Sequence record: OR192075.1
Length of the DNA: 64,000 nucleotides
Source of the DNA: Escherichia phage MIZ6
Reading direction: 5' to 3' (one strand)
Part shown: positions 6,762 through 41,198 of the stretch, one piece after another
Numbering within the stretch: position 1 is the stretch's first letter
How the letters are laid out: the number at the start of each line of letters is the position of its first letter
Notes under the pieces: generated by a model
What the model saw: only the letters and a program-made list of their open reading frames with translations
Database searches by the model: none
What the model was told of the DNA's origin: nothing
Position numbers and translations under genes: made by a program

Positions 6762-8250
6762 CGAATACCTCTTTTACTGTATTTGCAGTGGTCTTGTCGT
6801 AGCGAATACGTTTGATGATTGGGAGAAATAAAGAGAACTCCGGTTCATCTTCTTTACGTGATTTGCTGCGGATATACCCGTTGCATGTCATCTCAATAAC
6901 TTTTCCAATCAGGTTATGACGGTCAGCCCATAACATTTCTCGGTCGAGTTCATTTCGACGATCGAACGGAATTACACGTTCAGTACCATCATCACCTTTT
7001 TCGGTTGTAGTGTCGGTTAATCCCGATCCGGTGTTAGTCATCATTCGTCCGCACGCACTACGGACAGTAAAACCGCCTACCTTATTGGGGTCTTTACTAT
7101 GCGGATATACATCAACAATTTCCGCGTCGAAGTCAATCACTTCTTTAAATTTAACCTGATCTTTACTACGGCGATCTTCAAATACACCATGTAAATTTTT
7201 AAGGATAATACCTTCTAAGCCCATGTTGACATAACGATGATATACTTCGCGAGCTTCATCGATATTGTTAACTACAGTGTTTTCGATGATCTGAACACGA
7301 GGATCGTTAAGTTCTTCAACAATCTGTTTTAGTTCTTCGAATCGATCTTTATATTGCTTCGTTGCTTTCTCGTTTCCGTAATACACATCACGGTCGATAA
7401 CATCCCAGACAGTGTAAACAATACATTGGGCTTCTTCTTTTGGAATAGTTCCTTTAAGTGATTTGTTGAGGATACCATTTCCGGTCTGACGATCTGCAAC
7501 AACGGATTCTTTCACTGCTTCCGCTACTGGCGTTAATGGCATTTCCTCTTCTTCAAATATCCATGACAGAGTACCATCATAAACGCTTTCAACGAAGTTC
7601 TGCGCTGGTGTTTGCGAAAGGGTAGGCATATATACCAATTCGCCATCTAGAACAATTCCACGGCCTCGTAGACGCTCTAAAACCGCAAACAAATCATCAA
7701 GCCCTTGATAGGTATTACCTGAGCGGGTATAGATTGCTAATGTTTCCCCGTCAATATCAGCCATACCACGAGCGCCATCGCTTTTAAGTTGTGCATACGC
7801 CGGATACTTGATATTAGCAATAGTCTTATCAGAACATGACGATGCAAGGTGGCACGGCTGCTGGGGGATCAGTTTCTTCCATACCTTGTTTGCAGTAGTA
7901 GCGGAACAACCACATTCCAGATCACGATTCAGGACCATCATTGCAACTTTAGCATCATCTTCTGACAAGCAAGTCAGAGTATCGGTAACTAGCTGTAATG
8001 CTGCATTACCAGTTACTTGACGCGTGGCAAGTTTATTTTTAAAGACCTGTAATGCACCGGATAAAGACAATACAGACGAATAGCGAGACGGTTTATCGTA
8101 TTTCTTTACGCCAAACGTAACCTGTTTGCAATATGCCAGATAAAAGCATTCTTTCAGCGTTTCATTGCTCGCGGATTCTTTCAGAATCTTTTCTTTCAGC
8201 GATGTTTTGTCTGTTGCTGCAAGCTGATTAATGATATTAAGAATTGACAT
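6754..8250 (-). CDS. 30: ATP-dependent DNA ligase (T4 gp30-like)
   Basis: KxDG adenylation motif (QLKSDGARG); T4 gp30-like length and C-terminus; ATG at 8250 with RBS GAGGTGAAA. Confidence 0.9.
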   Translation of the reverse strand: MSILNIINQLAATDKTSLKEKILKESASNETLKECFYLAYCKQVTFGVKKYDKPSRYSSVLSLSGALQVFKNKLATRQVTGNAALQLVTDTLTCLSEDDAKVAMMVLNRDLECGCSATTANKVWKKLIPQQPCHLASSCSDKTIANIKYPAYAQLKSDGARGMADIDGETLAIYTRSGNTYQGLDDLFAVLERLRGRGIVLDGELVYMPTLSQTPAQNFVESVYDGTLSWIFEEEEMPLTPVAEAVKESVVADRQTGNGILNKSLKGTIPKEEAQCIVYTVWDVIDRDVYYGNEKATKQYKDRFEELKQIVEELNDPRVQIIENTVVNNIDEAREVYHRYVNMGLEGIILKNLHGVFEDRRSKDQVKFKEVIDFDAEIVDVYPHSKDPNKVGGFTVRSACGRMMTNTGSGLTDTTTEKGDDGTERVIPFDRRNELDREMLWADRHNLIGKVIEMTCNGYIRSKSRKEDEPEFSLFLPIIKRIRYDKTTANTVKEVFDV

Positions 8251-8716
8251 TTTCACCTCGTTTTGTTAAACGTTCACGAATATCATTGAGGATACTACAA
8301 AATTCCGATTCAGTCAATATAGTCTTTAACGGATCAGTTCCACCTATGCTATGACGTAATTTCTTATTTCCGGTAGAGAGTAATGCTTTACAAAATTCTG
8401 GGTTATTCCGTGCCATCGTAACAAATGCCAGATGTACCAGTCTGTAATAATGCTCACTCATTCGATGAATCGGGCGACCCTGAAAATATAACATGTGATT
8501 CTCAATCTTTTCAGTTCTTCCGGTTCTTTTTGCTTTGCCACCGTGCATCAAAAAGATTTCTCTTTGTCTCTGAGGGTTCTTAAATCTTAGCCCCTGTAAA
8601 AATCCTTCTGTGCTGTTAATATCGCAACCAAATAGACGGAATGGTCTTTTATTGAAATTACTCAATTCACCCGATGGATAAGGTCCACCCGCATAGATAT
8701 CAATTTCAGAAGTCAT
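8237..8716 (-). CDS. NADAR (YbiA/DUF1768-like) domain protein
   Basis: GELSNF ... FLQGLRF ... SEHYY motifs resembling E. coli YbiA. Confidence 0.6.
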   Translation of the reverse strand: MTSEIDIYAGGPYPSGELSNFNKRPFRLFGCDINSTEGFLQGLRFKNPQRQREIFLMHGGKAKRTGRTEKIENHMLYFQGRPIHRMSEHYYRLVHLAFVTMARNNPEFCKALLSTGNKKLRHSIGGTDPLKTILTESEFCSILNDIRERLTKRGENVNS

Positions 8717-33233: not shown

Positions 33234-35990
33234 ATGGCAGATTTAAGCAGAATCCAATTTAAACGCACTAGCACTAAAGGTCGTAAACCTGATGCTAGTG
33301 CGATGAATCCGGGGGAATTGGCAATCAACCTTGCGGATCAATATCTTCTTACTAAAAATGATTCCGGTGCTATTATCAATTTAAGTTGTCCTCCGGTGTA
33401 TGACCGACAAGTTAGATTCGCTGGTAAGGTTGACGGTGACAACTATATTTTAGGTAAAACTGCTAACTATATGGATGATTCAACCGCTCGCGACCTTAAC
33501 AAATTTGGTGCGTTTCGAACGAATAATGCTGATGGATGGTCTAACTTGATTCTGAACATTCCTCATTCTAGCGGTAAAGCACACGGTCGCGGGTTTGAAT
33601 TTCAATATGGTTCTAGTTCCTCTCAGGTTAAAACCTATGGCTTTGATCAGGATGGTAACAAGAGATTCAGTTACCGCATGTATCATGAAGGCGATAAACC
33701 TACACCATCGGAATTGAACGTTTACAGCAAACAAGAAGTAGATAGAATGTTTGTTAAAAACGTTAAAATGTCTACTCCTCCCGATGTAAGTCGAGGATAT
33801 TTCAAAATTGCTACCGCCATGATCCCCCAGCAAGGAAAAATGGCATTTATTCGTATCTATGGTGGTAATGGATATAACGTTAACTCTATGGATCAAGTTG
33901 ACTTTGTAGAAATCGTGATTCGTGGTGGGAATGGAAATCCTAAAGGTGTTAGTATTGCAGCATATCGACGAAATGCTTTAAATCAGCTTGAAGTATTTGC
34001 TATTAATACATCTGGTGATAACTATGATATCTATGTAAAATATGGTCGATACACCGATAACGTTATTGTAGAATTTGGAAAAACGGTCGATGTTAATTTA
34101 ACTGTTCATGATGTTCCGGCTTTTTCGGAAGCAAAACCTGCTGGTACTACCTTTGAAGGTCGTGTTATTACGATGTTCAACACCGAAAACAAAGCCGGAA
34201 CGTTGATGTTTGATAATAACTCACAAGCAACCTATGATATTGTGAGCCTTAGCAATGCACCTGATAATAGCCGAAATTATCTGCGTAAATTCCGTAGCAA
34301 AGCGAATGAAACAATATGGCATGAAACTGTTCAAGGTGATGTGTATCGTCTGGCTACTGGTTCCACCGACCAAAAAGAAGTATTAAAAATTGTTGGTAGT
34401 GATGGTTTATTTGTCAATAGACTTCATCTGCAAGGCAATAACGCGATTCGTATGTGGCGTCCTACTGGTTGTAGTAACTATTTTGAATATATGGATCAGC
34501 GAGACGGGGCTAATAAACGTCAAGGCTGGTTTGGTTTTGGTTCTACAGAAACCAACGATTTTCAATGGTATAGTGACGAAGGTAAAAACTTTGTTAAGCT
34601 AGAAGCAAGTGGTCAAGTATCTTTAAGCGCAGGTGCAACCAAAATTGTATACACTAATGGTCAATATGTAGCTGCCAATTCTGATGCATACCGTATGATC
34701 TTTGGTAATTATGGTGCATTCTGGCGTAATGACGGCACTAAAGTTTATCTTCTTTCTACTGCCGAAAATGATCGTTTTGGTGGATGGAATAGCTATCGTC
34801 CATTCATTTATGATTTAACTTCCGGTAACGTTCAATTAGGCGGTGATGGTAACGAAGATGCATTAACGTTAGAATGTGCTTCTCGTGCCGCTCGCTTTAG
34901 TAATGACGTTTACATTAAGAAAGGGCTTTTGACTTTCGACGCTGGGCGATTAAATTCCCGCGATTACTTCCGGTTTAACCATTGGGGCGATAGCAATAAC
35001 GGTCGCGATAACATCCTACAGATTGAAGACAGTCAGGGCGCACATTTTATCACTGAACGTGCTATGGGTACTGGTAACATAACAACACGTTTTAGAGGCT
35101 TTGTACGTGTAGAATCTGGTGAAATTGCATTTGATGCTAACCGTGGTTCTTCTTCGCAATTTAGTCTCCATACATGGGGTAATGAATCACGAAAACAAGT
35201 TTTTGAATGTAAGGATGCAACAAGTTATCATTGGTATACCGAACGTACTGCGGGTGGCACTGGTCCGGTTAAGTTCTCTGTTGCAGGTTCTTTCTATAGC
35301 GGAAGCGATGTTAACGTAGGCGGTAGTCTGAATTTTGGTAATGCTATTCAACGCGGCGCTAGCGTCATTACTATAGATTCTGGTTCTGCGGGTGCTGGTT
35401 CTTTTGCATCTCAACATGATGATAACGTCAAAGCACCTATTTTCCAACGTTTAGACCGTGGTGATGCGTCTATATATGTTCCTTTGATTAAGCAACGTTA
35501 TGTTCAAGGTGCAGTAACATTCTCGTTGGGTATGCTTCTTAACGAAGGTTCATGGCGAGTTCATGTTAAAGGTTCTGGTGTTGAATCTAATACTACCTTC
35601 TATAAAAACGGCGATTTCCAAGCTGGACGCAATGGTAACTTTAACGACGTTTACATTCGCTCTGACTCTCGCCTGAAAATCAACAAGGAAGAGTATAAAG
35701 AGAATGCTACCGATAAAGTAAATAATCTTAAGGTATATTCCTACGATAAGGTTAAATCTTTAACCGACCGTACTGTAATCGCTCATGAAGTTGGTATTAT
35801 TGCTCAGGATCTTGAAAAAGAATTGCCGGAAGCAGTAACAACTTCTAACATCGGCGACCCAGATAACCCAGAAGAGATCTTAACAATTTCTAACTCTGCT
35901 GTCAACGCTCTTTTAATTAAGGCGTTTCAGGAAATGAGCGAAGAATTGAAAGCCGTTAAAGCTGAACTAGCGGAACTTAAAAAGAATTAA
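33234..35990 (+). CDS. 37: long tail fibre distal subunit (T4 gp37-like) with C-terminal intramolecular chaperone domain
   Basis: N-terminus and AGAGSFASQ..YVP.IKQRYVQG block match T4 gp37; C-terminal SDSRLK autocleavage-type motif and coiled-coil tail. Confidence 0.88.
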   Translation: MADLSRIQFKRTSTKGRKPDASAMNPGELAINLADQYLLTKNDSGAIINLSCPPVYDRQVRFAGKVDGDNYILGKTANYMDDSTARDLNKFGAFRTNNADGWSNLILNIPHSSGKAHGRGFEFQYGSSSSQVKTYGFDQDGNKRFSYRMYHEGDKPTPSELNVYSKQEVDRMFVKNVKMSTPPDVSRGYFKIATAMIPQQGKMAFIRIYGGNGYNVNSMDQVDFVEIVIRGGNGNPKGVSIAAYRRNALNQLEVFAINTSGDNYDIYVKYGRYTDNVIVEFGKTVDVNLTVHDVPAFSEAKPAGTTFEGRVITMFNTENKAGTLMFDNNSQATYDIVSLSNAPDNSRNYLRKFRSKANETIWHETVQGDVYRLATGSTDQKEVLKIVGSDGLFVNRLHLQGNNAIRMWRPTGCSNYFEYMDQRDGANKRQGWFGFGSTETNDFQWYSDEGKNFVKLEASGQVSLSAGATKIVYTNGQYVAANSDAYRMIFGNYGAFWRNDGTKVYLLSTAENDRFGGWNSYRPFIYDLTSGNVQLGGDGNEDALTLECASRAARFSNDVYIKKGLLTFDAGRLNSRDYFRFNHWGDSNNGRDNILQIEDSQGAHFITERAMGTGNITTRFRGFVRVESGEIAFDANRGSSSQFSLHTWGNESRKQVFECKDATSYHWYTERTAGGTGPVKFSVAGSFYSGSDVNVGGSLNFGNAIQRGASVITIDSGSAGAGSFASQHDDNVKAPIFQRLDRGDASIYVPLIKQRYVQGAVTFSLGMLLNEGSWRVHVKGSGVESNTTFYKNGDFQAGRNGNFNDVYIRSDSRLKINKEEYKENATDKVNNLKVYSYDKVKSLTDRTVIAHEVGIIAQDLEKELPEAVTTSNIGDPDNPEEILTISNSAVNALLIKAFQEMSEELKAVKAELAELKKN

Positions 35991-36966: not shown

Positions 36967-36998
36967 GGGGAAGCCTTTCGGCCTCCCCTTCTTTTTAT
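36967..36998 (+). terminator. rho-independent terminator, probably bidirectional
   Basis: hairpin GGGGAAGCC-TTTC-GGCCTCCCC followed by TTCTTTTTATT. Confidence 0.6.
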
Positions 36999-37243
36999 TG
37001 GCGCATAGACGCGCCTGAATCGCATTTTGACGCTGTATGATGAAAACAGGTAGCGTACCAGTCATCGGCTTGTTTGTCTTCGTCAGAAAACGCGTAATTT
37101 CGTTGTACGCCGTTTTCTACTTTGACCAGTGCGATAGCTGTTTCTGGAAGATCAATCAATCGGACAAAATCACCATCTTCCCACTCTACACGAGCAATAT
37201 CATAGCCCATCTCAAAGTATACAATCGCTTGTTCTAATTTCAT
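36995..37243 (-). CDS. DUF2829-like small protein (Tad2-like candidate)
   Basis: LEQAIVYFEMGYDIARVEW ... SDEDKQADDWY pattern resembles DUF2829. Confidence 0.4.
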   Translation of the reverse strand: MKLEQAIVYFEMGYDIARVEWEDGDFVRLIDLPETAIALVKVENGVQRNYAFSDEDKQADDWYATCFHHTASKCDSGASMRQ

Positions 37244-37563
37244 TCTGGAAACTTCCCGTAAACATTCTCTGCCAGCTTACGTGCGTCTTTTACAATATCT
37301 TTCATGTAATGACTATAATTTTTAGCTAGATCAATGATGCAATCAACAAAGAAGTAATAGCGTCGCAGTGCTACCATCTCAACATCTTCAAGATGACCAT
37401 TTTCTCCAATCTCTGAAATATGTTTAAATTCCTTTCGGATCGCGTCCATCGCGACATTAACTTCTTTTATAATATCTTTCGTATTATATGCACCTCGACT
37501 AATCAAAATTTTGGTTATGTCCTCTGCTTTTTCGTGAAAGTTGTCAATTTCAAACTCGATCAT
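37240..37563 (-). CDS. hypothetical protein, tandem paralog of 37678..38010
   Basis: ATG at 37563 with RBS GAGAGGTGATT; shared C-terminal motif AR..EN.(Y/F).KF. Confidence 0.5.
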   Translation of the reverse strand: MIEFEIDNFHEKAEDITKILISRGAYNTKDIIKEVNVAMDAIRKEFKHISEIGENGHLEDVEMVALRRYYFFVDCIIDLAKNYSHYMKDIVKDARKLAENVYGKFPE

Positions 37564-37677
37564 AATCACCTCTCATAATTTCACGCTGTTGTGTCAACAT
37601 TTTTTCGTGGTTTGCTAATTCTATACCTTGTAATAGCATAACCAGTGCAATTTTCAATGATTCATCATCTTTCATAA

Positions 37678-38010
37678 TCAAAATTTATCGAAAATATTCT
37701 CTGTCATAATTCTTGCTTCGTCGATTATTTTCGTCATGTTCATGGTGTAGTTATGATCATTTAGTGCTTTAATGACAACGAGCAAGGAATCTAAAAACAC
37801 TCGATACCGGGTATATTCTACGCTATTTGTGAATACCGATGTTTTCTCTACTTTATCGATCAGATAGCCTAAAACCGATAGCGCCTCGTTTACTTCCCTT
37901 GTTACTTTATCGGCGCTAAACAACACCGGATAAAGACGCGGTGTGATTAACCGCGCTGCCTCTTTCAATTCGGTCGCTTTCCAGGATTCATATTTGTCAT
38001 AGTTAAACAT
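37678..38010 (-). CDS. hypothetical protein, tandem paralog of 37240..37563
   Basis: ORF; similar length and C-terminus. Confidence 0.5.
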   Translation of the reverse strand: MFNYDKYESWKATELKEAARLITPRLYPVLFSADKVTREVNEALSVLGYLIDKVEKTSVFTNSVEYTRYRVFLDSLLVVIKALNDHNYTMNMTKIIDEARIMTENIFDKF

Positions 38011-38957: not shown

Positions 38958-39236
38958 TTATTTTCGGTTGTACTTCTGCCACTTTCGGTAATACTGCTTG
39001 TAATATTGTTTAATGTTTGGTGGTTCGTCACTATACATGTTATCAACCATCATGTCAATAAGACCTTCCGGTGTTTGATAGTTACCCGCTCGAATGAGTT
39101 CCTTAATCAAAAGATCTTGTGTCGCTTTATACTTGACAATAACAACTGTCTTTTCTGCCTTTCCAATTCCGATCCGGTCGTTAGCTCTCATAGCATCCCA
39201 CCAATCTTTTTTAAACTTCATGTTGTTAAATTTCAT
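38958..39236 (-). CDS. hypothetical basic protein
   Basis: RBS AAGAAGGG. Confidence 0.5.
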   Translation of the reverse strand: MKFNNMKFKKDWWDAMRANDRIGIGKAEKTVVIVKYKATQDLLIKELIRAGNYQTPEGLIDMMVDNMYSDEPPNIKQYYKQYYRKWQKYNRK

Positions 39237-39239
39237 AAT

Positions 39240-40040
39240 TTAACCCTTCTTATATTCGCAAACATATTGAGTACCATAATCATAGCTAATGCGACCTTTC
39301 TCGATGACTTCAAAGCGGATTTCATCGTTTTCCCCTACCCACATTTTGTACTCGTTGAAGTATCCTGCTACATCCGGTTTGCTCATACCAACAACCATAT
39401 TTTTATATTGTTTGCTGCGTGTCAGATTTGATTTAAACACTTCGCGCTCATCAACATATACGAAAGAAGACAATTCACCTTCGGTCATGGTCATTTTCAG
39501 CTTGCCGCCCTTGTTGCCATAAGTAGAGTTGCCATACAATGGATCTTTGCGGCTGTCTGTTTCAATACCATCAATGATTTTCCATGTAAATTTTGCAATG
39601 CACTGATAAGTGATAGATCCAGAGATTTTCTCTTCTTTCTTCTGTTCTTCCACCACTTTTTCTTCCTGTTTCGGTTGTTCTTCTTCAACCTTCGCAGAAG
39701 TCTCTGAATCGCTTTCTGACTCGGTTTCTTCTTTAGGTAATACATTCATCAAGTTTTGGATTTGAGCGTTGTATACAGCCTCCAGTGGCTGGATCTGTCC
39801 GATATTGATCATTGTATCACGAACAGTTTTATTCCAGTTGCGTTGCTCTTGTTTCAGAGACGGATCAATCTTAACAGCCTTAACATACACCTCATGAAGT
39901 TTCGAATCCAGTGCGGAGATTGACTCATTAGCACAAATAAACTTCTCTGATTTGGTAGTGGCTTTAGCGCAATCAAAGGACGCAGCATTAGCACCGAAAG
40001 CAGTAGCGGAAAGAACGATCGCAGCGATAATGTTTTTCAT
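39240..40040 (-). CDS. secreted protein with LprI/DUF1311-like N-terminal domain
   Basis: signal peptide MKNIIAAIVLSATAFGANA; DCAKATT..EKFICANE..ALD..L...Y Cys pattern; acidic linker. Confidence 0.5.
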   Translation of the reverse strand: MKNIIAAIVLSATAFGANAASFDCAKATTKSEKFICANESISALDSKLHEVYVKAVKIDPSLKQEQRNWNKTVRDTMINIGQIQPLEAVYNAQIQNLMNVLPKEETESESDSETSAKVEEEQPKQEEKVVEEQKKEEKISGSITYQCIAKFTWKIIDGIETDSRKDPLYGNSTYGNKGGKLKMTMTEGELSSFVYVDEREVFKSNLTRSKQYKNMVVGMSKPDVAGYFNEYKMWVGENDEIRFEVIEKGRISYDYGTQYVCEYKKG

Positions 40041-40114
40041 AATATATTCCTCAATGTTTTGTCTTGATGGGAGTATCTTACTACTCCCTTAATCCGGTGT
40101 CAACTACTTTTAAA

Positions 40115-40414
40115 TTATTTTCGCCATTCACCGGAAACAATAAAGTTTGTAAAGTGATCGTGGTCCGTGATAACGTCATTAAGTACCATATGTGGATACA
40201 CTTTAGTGATAATTTTACTAAGTACCATATGCGGATATGCTTTAGTGTAATCACGTTTACGATCAGTCATCCAGCCAACGAAAGTTGGTGCAAAGTACGG
40301 TACACCGTCAGACGATGCCATATTAAACCCTTTATCAACCATAAATGCAGCCGCCCTAAGATTTTTAATTGAAGTAGTGCGACTAATTTCAAAAACTTTA
40401 TCGGTAAAATTCAT
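40115..40414 (-). CDS. hypothetical protein containing internal tandem repeat (KAYPHMVL / KVYPHMVL)
   Basis: ATG at 40414 with G-rich RBS; 39-bp DNA tandem repeat inside. Confidence 0.5.
   Translation of the reverse strand: MNFTDKVFEISRTTSIKNLRAAAFMVDKGFNMASSDGVPYFAPTFVGWMTDRKRDYTKAYPHMVLSKIITKVYPHMVLNDVITDHDHFTNFIVSGEWRK
40181..40255. repeat. about 39-bp direct tandem repeat, 2 copies
   Basis: aagtaccatatg(t/c)ggata(c/t)(a/g)ctttagtg... repeated back to back. Confidence 0.6.
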
Positions 40415-40415
40415 T

Positions 40416-40625
40416 TTAAGCCCCCGCTCGTGCATTAATACGCATTTTCTGCATAGCCATGATCTGGTTTACTGCTTCTTCTTTACGTTCTTGCGTGATA
40501 ACGTGACCAGATTCCGCAAACTCTCCCGCAACTTCTTCTACGATCTCGCGAACTTGAGAACGTCCAAAGATGCGGTTTCCTTCGTAGCTCATAAACTCGG
40601 TTACTACTTGCTCGATAGATTTCAT
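40416..40625 (-). CDS. hypothetical protein
   Basis: promoter cassette and GGAGAATCA RBS. Confidence 0.55.
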   Translation of the reverse strand: MKSIEQVVTEFMSYEGNRIFGRSQVREIVEEVAGEFAESGHVITQERKEEAVNQIMAMQKMRINARAGA

Positions 40626-40973: not shown

Positions 40974-41198
40974 CTACCGATGACCTTTGGCGTCAACTGC
41001 TTTTTTATTATTTTCGTGAAAATTTTTCGTCGCCTCATGTGCTTTTCGCTGGGCTTCTTGTTGTGCTTGCTGGCGTGCTGCCTCTTGTGAAGCCATAACG
41101 GAAGCATTTGCAGCAGTTACAGCCGCTACCATCGCTGCGGTATTAGCATTTACAGTACATGCACTAGCCAGCAAAGCAATTGCAATCATTTTCTTCAT
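40974..41198 (-). CDS. small secreted protein or lipoprotein
   Basis: signal peptide MKKMIAIALLASAC; RBS AAAGGGGAAA. Confidence 0.5.
   Translation of the reverse strand: MKKMIAIALLASACTVNANTAAMVAAVTAANASVMASQEAARQQAQQEAQRKAHEATKNFHENNKKAVDAKGHR

Follow-up and report, generated by a model that had tools for sequence, protein, structure and literature searches.

A two-module DUF1311 protein with a predicted, exchangeable β-barrel in Krischvirus phages and Escherichia coli prophages

The genome of Escherichia phage MIZ6 (sequence record OR192075.1) encodes a protein of 266 amino acids (aa) at positions 39240..40040, on the minus strand, of the 64,000-nucleotide stretch analysed here, which we refer to as the window. 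The protein combines an almost invariant N-terminal module of the DUF1311/LprI type with a C-terminal domain, predicted to be a β-barrel, that occurs in several deeply diverged classes. These barrel cassettes have been exchanged among phages of the genus Krischvirus and with a temperate prophage of E. coli. We tentatively suggest that the protein guards the cell envelope in the manner of superinfection-exclusion or immunity proteins.

The open reading frame (ORF) starts with ATG and is a real gene, which is kept in about 58 Krischvirus genomes and has a ratio of nonsynonymous to synonymous substitutions (dN/dS) well under 1. The window was 100% identical to Escherichia phages MIZ2 and MIZ3 over the 4 kb tested, and 93% to 98% identical to RB49, Phi1, GEC-3S and other Krischvirus members (Straboviridae). 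This near-identity identifies the source as a T4-type virulent coliphage of the genus Krischvirus, in agreement with an earlier reading of the letters alone (hereafter the sequence-only reading), which had taken the source to be a T4-like phage. The DUF1311 annotation of the orthologues was known before and is already found in databases, where they are labelled "LprI domain-containing" or "lysozyme inhibitor LprI family protein", and a weak match of RB49ORF260c to DUF1311 had been tabulated by 2006 (PMC1524935). We could not find an earlier description of the LprI-like two-module architecture at the fold level, of the polymorphism of the barrel cassette, or of its exchange between virulent and temperate coliphages.

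Modular architecture of the protein

The sequence-only reading had proposed a cleavable signal peptide, an N-terminal cysteine pattern resembling that of LprI/DUF1311, an acidic linker and a C-terminal domain. All 4 parts were recovered here, including the signal peptide and the DUF1311 match on which that reading had staked itself. The signal peptide (residues 1 to 19/20, MKNIIAAIVLSATAFGANA/A; 39984..40040, minus strand) was judged by hand from sequence features, which are those of the Sec/signal peptidase I (SPase I) type. It consists of an MK n-region, a 13-residue hydrophobic core, IIAAIVLSATAFG, with Kyte-Doolittle values of up to 2.47, and a c-region with the AXA-type site ANA/A. The cleavage junction, AFGANA/ASFDC, has no cysteine at position +1 and no lipobox. 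In an alignment of the window protein with 46 phage and bacterial relatives (47 sequences), the junction A-x-A-A-SFDC recurred in dozens of the relatives. All 20 alleles contained exactly 4 cysteines, C24, C36 and one each on the first and last strands of the barrel, and this arrangement in 2 pairs fits the expectation for a DsbA substrate. The protein is probably exported to the periplasm, and its gene is likely to be expressed early.

Residues 21 to 103 (39732..39980, minus strand) correspond to a DUF1311/LprI-type domain, in which a loop bounded by C24 and C36 is followed by a predicted three-helix bundle. The Pfam family PF07007 (LprI/DUF1311) matched residues 24 to 76 at profile positions 1 to 71 of 106, with a score of 25.9 bits (E-value 1.4e-5) against a gathering cut-off of 22 bits. 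The N-terminal cysteine pattern is located within SFDCAKATTKSEKFIC, and the PF07007 motif FDCxKAxxxxExxIC … LD…Y … QxxW…R … Y..R..L was found across the whole domain. Residues S21, F22, D23, C24, E32 and C36 were invariant in the 47-sequence alignment, while K26, A27, I35, D45, W69 and Y90 were conserved in at least 90% of the sequences. AlphaFold, run on this segment with the same alignment, gave a model with a predicted local distance difference test score (pLDDT) of 88.6, in which the cysteine-bounded N-terminal loop carries a short helix and is followed by 3 long helices. The predicted fold is a helical bundle, as in the crystal structure 3GI7. The second cysteine pair of the family (RNxCxDxxC) was not present in the window protein, which has M77 and P85 at those columns, and the DUF1311 versions of Marfavirus and SSU5 phages likewise lack it. 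We read the missing pair as a putative phage-specific variant of the domain.

The linker that follows (residues 104 to 140, 37 residues; 39621..39731, minus strand) contains 37% Glu, has a net charge of −9 and is disordered in the AlphaFold model, with pLDDT values below 50. It differs in length among alleles and contains indels in the alignments. The C-terminal domain (residues 141 to 266; 39243..39620, minus strand) is polymorphic, and the variant in the window was assigned to class A. AlphaFold placed 8 strands in residues 141 to 263 with a pLDDT of about 86, giving a predicted up-and-down β-barrel of the eight-stranded antiparallel type known from MliC/PliC proteins, with a highly charged surface. 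Its sole cysteines, C147 on predicted strand 1 and C261 on predicted strand 8, were invariant in all alleles, and their positions suggest a disulphide that would join the first and last strands. When a profile was searched against 1.84 billion representative proteins for relatives of the barrel, the only matches were the family itself, 2 repeat-protein artefacts and 1 fragment, and by this search the barrel is an orphan domain. PDB sequence searches gave only noise, and a search of NCBIfam gave no match.

T4-type Aeromonas phages, Klebsiella Marfaviruses and Salmonella phage SSU5 encode proteins of 230 to 250 aa that share the signal peptide and the DUF1311 module. In these proteins a charged linker leads to C-terminal domains that are unrelated to one another and have 2 cysteines each. 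Of 69 bacterial relatives of the module, 56 matched PF07007 (best E-value 3.9e-21), and in most of the bacterial proteins, which are longer and exported, the module is N-terminal. Most of the partner domains were unassigned to families; the others included DUF3298 (3 proteins), PdaC (1 protein) and DUF4431 (1 protein).

The architecture resembles that of LprI (Rv1541c) from Mycobacterium tuberculosis, an exported envelope protein with the same order of modules, an N-terminal DUF1311 domain followed by an 8-stranded β-barrel of the MliC type (PMC7933661, PMC5507604). LprI is a lipoprotein, however, whereas the signal peptide of the phage protein lacks a lipobox and ends in an SPase I site. Furthermore, the phage barrel is polymorphic, measures about 120 aa rather than about 90 aa and lacks the sequence signal and motifs of MliC, and the phage DUF1311 domain lacks the second cysteine pair and is separated from the barrel by a long acidic linker. 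Among the closest known systems are also the periplasmic lysozyme or muramidase inhibitors MliC, PliC, ACP and PhiA. MliC, PliC and ACP are 8-stranded barrels with a conserved disulphide between strands 1 and 8, and ACP is a lysozyme inhibitor even though it lacks the MliC motifs (PMC5507604). In gross anatomy the predicted phage domain resembles them, being an 8-stranded barrel with cysteines on the first and last strands.

Exchange of the barrel cassettes

To compare the 2 modules, we used 20 cluster representatives and 17 genomic copies of the gene. Residues 1 to 106 were almost invariant across the alleles, whereas only C147, G158 and C261 were invariant in the barrel. The barrels fell into at least 4 deeply diverged classes, with identities of 16% to 56% and saturated synonymous divergence (dS). 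Class A comprised the barrels of the window, GEC-3S, Phi1, E26, ELT3 and PHB13, while class B was made up of RB49 together with about 40 further records. A third class was represented by UPWr_E1, and the class here called C by JSE.

The same division was seen in the DNA. The window was 95% to 98% identical to other Krischviruses over the first ~385 nucleotides of the gene, but past this point, over the remainder of the gene and the small ORF that follows it, the identity was 40% to 55%, before it returned to about 100%. The zone where the DNA similarity to other alleles ends (39627..39670, minus strand) is the 5′ recombination boundary of the cassette. It spans gene nucleotides 371 to 414, where megablast matches to the E. 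coli prophage copies end, and includes the drop in identity at about nucleotide 385.

Substitution rates were estimated with the Nei-Gojobori method. For the N-terminal module, the dS values of all pairs ranged from 0.03 to 0.30 and the dN values from 0 to 0.025, with dN/dS ratios mostly of 0.03 to 0.1 (up to 0.22), and these low ratios imply very strong purifying selection on the module. Between barrel classes, dS was 1 to 2.5 and dN 0.5 to 1.4, and since dS is saturated the dN/dS ratios at this level are unreliable. Within classes, dS ranged from 0.04 to 1.7 and dN reached about 0.4, with dN/dS ratios of 0.1 to 0.3. The barrels are thus old lineages under purifying selection that have been moved by recombination in the linker, rather than products of rapid point mutation. 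Pervasive positive selection as the source of the diversity is unsupported, given the within-class ratios and the saturation between classes, and recombination of old cassettes fits the data better. A diversity-generating retroelement was also considered and dismissed, since the alleles diverge over the entire domain and differ by indels as well. Arms-race interfaces typically show such a design, with one constant and one variable part.

In 26 of 5426 complete E. coli genomes, the first 371 to 414 nucleotides of the gene were present with 93% to 95% DNA identity, while the 3′ half was unmatched. In every E. coli case examined, the gene came last among the genes of a hicB-interrupting prophage with a GpA-type terminase and a Rha-family regulator. 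The IMG/VR collection likewise contained the gene at the end of prophage contigs of roughly 35 kb, and a pattern scan of the GTDB species-representative genomes found no copy. The single hicB locus carried copies with at least 3 barrel classes, each 41% to 56% identical to a Krischvirus class. Taken with the patterns above, this shows that barrel cassettes are exchanged both among Krischviruses and with the temperate E. coli prophage. Whatever its function, the gene provides a clean example of cassette exchange within a gene, with ~95% DNA identity between a virulent and a temperate phage over the first 380 nucleotides beside saturated divergence.

The prophage copy is bracketed by a promoter-like and a terminator-like site of its own, the latter a hairpin. 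A gene that stands alone at a prophage end and has its own transcription is the classic layout of a moron, and by analogy the gene may be an accessory gene that benefits the lysogen. Its carriage by a prophage implies a function that is independent of the lytic programme of T4-type phages. It was also noted that the prophage inserts at the 3′ end of the antitoxin gene hicB in the hicAB locus (E. coli chromosome loci about 8013-8342), where hicB is annotated as truncated and hicA is intact.

Possible roles in guarding the cell envelope

We assign a probability of about 0.4 to the explanation that the protein is an envelope-guarding binder or inhibitor comparable to superinfection-exclusion or immunity proteins. 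After early synthesis and export, it would be oxidised by the Dsb system. The DUF1311 module would engage a partner that does not vary, either a conserved component of the host envelope or a peptidoglycan hydrolase such as the Krischvirus gp5, and the presumably disulphide-stapled 8-stranded barrel, on its flexible acidic tether of ~37 residues, would engage an allele-dependent partner. Together the modules would shield the envelope of an infected cell or a lysogen from external attack, the candidate attackers being toxins that act in the periplasm and the proteins by which superinfecting phages degrade or penetrate the cell wall. A periplasmic exclusion or immunity protein is a reasonable hypothesis; lysozyme binding is unproven.

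This explanation is favoured because both types of module have precedents that neutralise cell-wall-active proteins. For the barrel, these are MliC, PliC and ACP. For DUF1311, the precedents come from type VI secretion systems (T6SS). The protein Etsi4 of enterohaemorrhagic E. coli (EHEC) neutralises Etse4, an effector that acts in the periplasm, and thereby rescues E. coli (PMC12981562), and other DUF1311 genes adjoin those of lysozyme-like T6SS effectors (PMC9796082, PMC12135965). The T6SS immunity proteins of this family (EHEC Etsi4 and those of Pantoea and of WHIX-effector neighbourhoods) resemble the phage protein in their domain family and signal peptide and in the neutralisation, in part predicted, of cell-wall toxins that act in the periplasm (PMC12981562, PMC9796082, PMC12135965). 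The phage protein differs in being encoded by a phage and in having the additional polymorphic barrel, and unlike the Etsi4-type immunity genes, its gene is not flanked by an effector-like gene in Krischviruses or in the prophage loci.

The order of the modules also argues for a protective role, since it equals that of M. tuberculosis LprI, and so do the fusions to DUF3298 in 3 of the 69 bacterial relatives, since this is the type of lysozyme-binding domain found in RsiV. The lysozyme-binding part of RsiV consists of DUF4163 and DUF3298, and some proteins of this kind do not bind lysozyme (PMC5014341). Further support comes from the signal peptide features, ribosome-binding site and sigma70-like promoter, which point to export and early expression, from the moron layout of the prophage copy, and from the swapping of barrel classes at the linker between virulent and temperate phages while the N-terminal module is invariant. 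Finally, RB49 has a gp5 tail lysozyme yet no detectable Spackle, and the gene is located in an accessory early block with a Tad2-like anti-defence candidate.

Several observations weigh against this explanation. The literature search found no functional study on the protein or any close relative, and a PADLOC search gave no match. According to PMC7933661, PF07007 lacks experimental support as a lysozyme inhibitor, a distinct MliC domain suffices for inhibition in M. tuberculosis LprI, and ScwA, a periplasmic DUF1311 protein of Salmonella, gives no protection against lysozyme and instead controls the levels of MltD. "Lysozyme inhibitor" is for DUF1311 a family name rather than a demonstrated property, and the view of the sequence-only reading that the domain has a lysozyme-inhibitor fold, which rests on that name, was therefore not upheld. 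For the barrel, no Pfam family, PF09864 (MliC/PliC) included, matched any of 12 C-terminal domain alleles at E-values of up to 10, and a regular-expression scan of 20 alleles found neither of the MliC/PliC motifs SxSGAxY (loop 4) and YxxxTKG (strand 6). With these results and a non-specific fold match, membership of the barrel in MliC/PliC was rejected at the sequence level. The within-class dN/dS ratios of the barrel give no average signal of positive selection. Moreover, Klebsiella phage PWKp16 (a Marfavirus) encodes both Spackle and a protein with a signal peptide, a DUF1311 module and another C-terminal domain, and the class of the barrel shows no coupling to the tail-fibre tip or the gp5 lysozyme of the same phage, which excludes tuning for self-exclusion through either of them.

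The lack of coupling was seen in 2 comparisons. The gp5 lysozyme domain was 98% to 100% identical in all Krischviruses, whatever their barrel class, and co-evolution of the barrel with the phage's own tail lysozyme was rejected on these grounds. Class A phages with identical barrels had gp37 tail-fibre tips that were only 47% to 84% identical, which weakens the idea that the barrel masks a receptor matched to the phage's own. The barrel is therefore not tuned to the lysozyme or the receptor of the phage that encodes it, and if the protein blocks the Krischvirus gp5, the DUF1311 module must do so. An invariant DUF1311 inhibitor set against an invariant gp5 target would be coherent, but is hypothetical.

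The narrowest form of a protective role is a strict analogue of Spackle, which would bind and inhibit the gp5 tail-spike lysozyme domain of a superinfecting Krischvirus and thereby block penetration of the wall. T4 Spackle (gp61.3) is an early periplasmic protein of a T4-type phage with a signal peptide, a partly helical structure and disulphides (PMC7677548), and the window protein resembles it as far as sequence features tell. Spackle, however, is a single-domain protein of 97 aa that inhibits the gp5 tail lysozyme in superinfection exclusion, whereas the window protein has 266 aa and 2 domains. In a phmmer search with the Spackle proteins of teqskov and PWKp16 against all RB49 ORFs, the RB49 orthologue scored an E-value of 4.3, which is noise, and the best tblastn match of Spackle in the complete RB49 genome had an E-value of 0.049 and was located inside an unrelated ORF of 470 aa. 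By these searches the window protein does not appear to be homologous to T4 Spackle. The comparison with Spackle-type exclusion made in the sequence-only reading nevertheless retains some plausibility, in that RB49 encodes a gp5 of 599 aa with a T4-lysozyme-like domain (RB49 genome 142783-144582) and no Spackle could be detected in its genome. The early, exported character suggested by the sequence features, the near-invariance of both the gp5 lysozyme domain and the DUF1311 module in Krischviruses, and the link between DUF1311 and immunity against lysozyme-like effectors (PMC9796082, PMC12981562) also speak for a strict analogue. Nonetheless, lysozyme binding by DUF1311 was never shown (PMC7933661), the polymorphic barrel would be left without a role, Marfavirus keeps both proteins, and the gene is kept by a prophage that lacks a T4-type tail lysozyme, although it may there serve as a defence against Krischviruses. 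We regard a strict analogue as quite unlikely. It was also observed that the gp5 tail-spike domain is the sole T4-lysozyme-like sequence in RB49, and since tblastn detected no separate endolysin of the T4 e type, the Krischvirus endolysin would belong to another family.

An unlikely, though not far-fetched, explanation is that the protein modulates wall enzymes of the host, with a DUF1311 module that controls lytic transglycosylases or autolysins, as in ScwA, and either stabilises the sacculus or tunes the timing of lysis during infection. ScwA is a free periplasmic DUF1311 protein that depends on structural disulphides, raises the levels of MltD and lyses cells when over-produced (PMC7933661). 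Conserved host autolysins would fit the invariant N-terminal module, and the holin gene t is only ~2.3 kb away, within the same block of genes, which extends to rIIB. The polymorphism and exchange of the barrel would be unexplained, however, and a role in lysis timing is of no obvious use to a quiescent prophage. Furthermore, ScwA carries its DUF1311 domain at the C-terminus, and the remainder of this chromosomal protein, which is not described as polymorphic, is helical (PMC7933661). We consider it improbable that the barrel instead binds a ligand or surface, either as a lipocalin- or YceI-like carrier of a strain-variable lipid, polyisoprenoid-linked glycan or other envelope molecule, or by masking an outer-membrane receptor from the periplasm. 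Strain-variable envelope glycans would account for several barrel classes, and on its long tether the barrel could extend as far as the outer membrane. Against this, the barrel class is independent of the tail-fibre tip and hence unmatched to the receptor of its own phage, its surface carries many charges, and neither Pfam nor the profile search gave a sequence family signal. Polymorphic binders are common among anti-defence proteins, and the early accessory block includes the Tad2-like candidate, both of which would suit a periplasmic counter-defence or host-takeover factor that neutralises a variable, envelope-located defence protein of the host or a prophage. Stand-alone carriage by a resident prophage fits defence better, and with no match in PADLOC and no known periplasmic defence target to propose, such a factor is very improbable.

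A bolder version of the envelope-guarding explanation, which we offer as speculative and quite unlikely, is that of a hitherto unrecognised, polymorphic family of exclusion or immunity proteins of the periplasm, which virulent T4-type phages and temperate E. coli prophages would trade with each other. The DUF1311 module would act as a functional analogue of Spackle that blocks gp5 or another conserved hydrolase, and the barrel would contribute a further specificity, different for each allele, towards other phages or toxins. A gene of phage origin would then shield the lysogens that carry the prophage copy from Krischviruses. If a protective role is true, T4-type phages would have a second route of superinfection exclusion, structurally unrelated to the first and modular, with constant and swappable parts. 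As the gene is shared with prophages, it would also affect which therapeutic Krischviruses infect which E. coli lysogens. It would further be the first function for a phage DUF1311 protein and would help to settle whether the widespread label "lysozyme inhibitor LprI family protein" fits DUF1311 itself.

Genomic setting and neighbouring genes

The gene belongs to a set of small accessory genes, transcribed leftward, between the holin gene t and the topoisomerase gene 52, and the small genes of this block were labelled "hypothetical" in all records seen. A candidate sigma70-like early promoter (40075..40103, minus strand) was identified upstream of the gene as a pattern match, with TTGACA and TAAGAT separated by a spacer of 17 nucleotides, a consensus score of 10/12 and an A/T-rich stretch upstream, and the record of phage GEC-3S annotates a promoter at the homologous position. 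The ribosome-binding site GAGGA (40048..40052, minus strand), read directly from the sequence, is located 7 nucleotides before the ATG.

Directly 3′ of the gene is an ORF of 92 aa (38958..39236, minus strand) without a signal peptide, which was assigned to phrog_15915. In Krischviruses it switches allele along with the barrel class. Its identity to the window copy was 96% to 100% in class A phages, 75% in JSE and 45% to 50% in class B phages. The co-change may reflect physical linkage alone or a functional pairing. The ORF was absent from the prophage loci that carry the gene, and an obligatory partnership is unlikely because these copies lack it.

Another small ORF of 82 aa (36995-37243, minus strand) adjoins the holin gene in convergent orientation and matched both Pfam PF11195 (Tad2-like, Thoeris anti-defence 2-like; 28.4 bits, cut-off 25) and phrog_1048. 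It is a candidate for an anti-Thoeris sponge of a Krischvirus. An ORF of 74 aa located 1 kb upstream in the same early block (40974-41198, minus strand) starts with MKKMIAIALLASAC and has a signal peptide with a possible lipobox (LASA/C), followed by an Ala/Gln-rich helical segment. It had no match in PHROG, Pfam or PADLOC, and may encode a second, putative envelope protein.

The distal tail-fibre gene gp37 (window 33234-35990, plus strand, and related loci) varied strongly among otherwise near-identical Krischviruses, with products of 918 to 981 aa in which the C-terminal 350 aa were 38% to 84% identical. Additional adhesin-like or small ORFs were located between gp37 and a 79-aa ORF in MIZ4 and UPWr_E1. 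Two tandem paralogues of 109 and 110 aa (37240-37569 and 37678-38010, minus strand) were both assigned to phrog_9457 and indicate a local gene duplication. Finally, an ORF of 106 aa (40115-40435, minus strand) contained an internal direct repeat, KAYPHMVLSKIITKVYPHMVLNDVIT, and was matched by phrog_19692 in 2 stretches.

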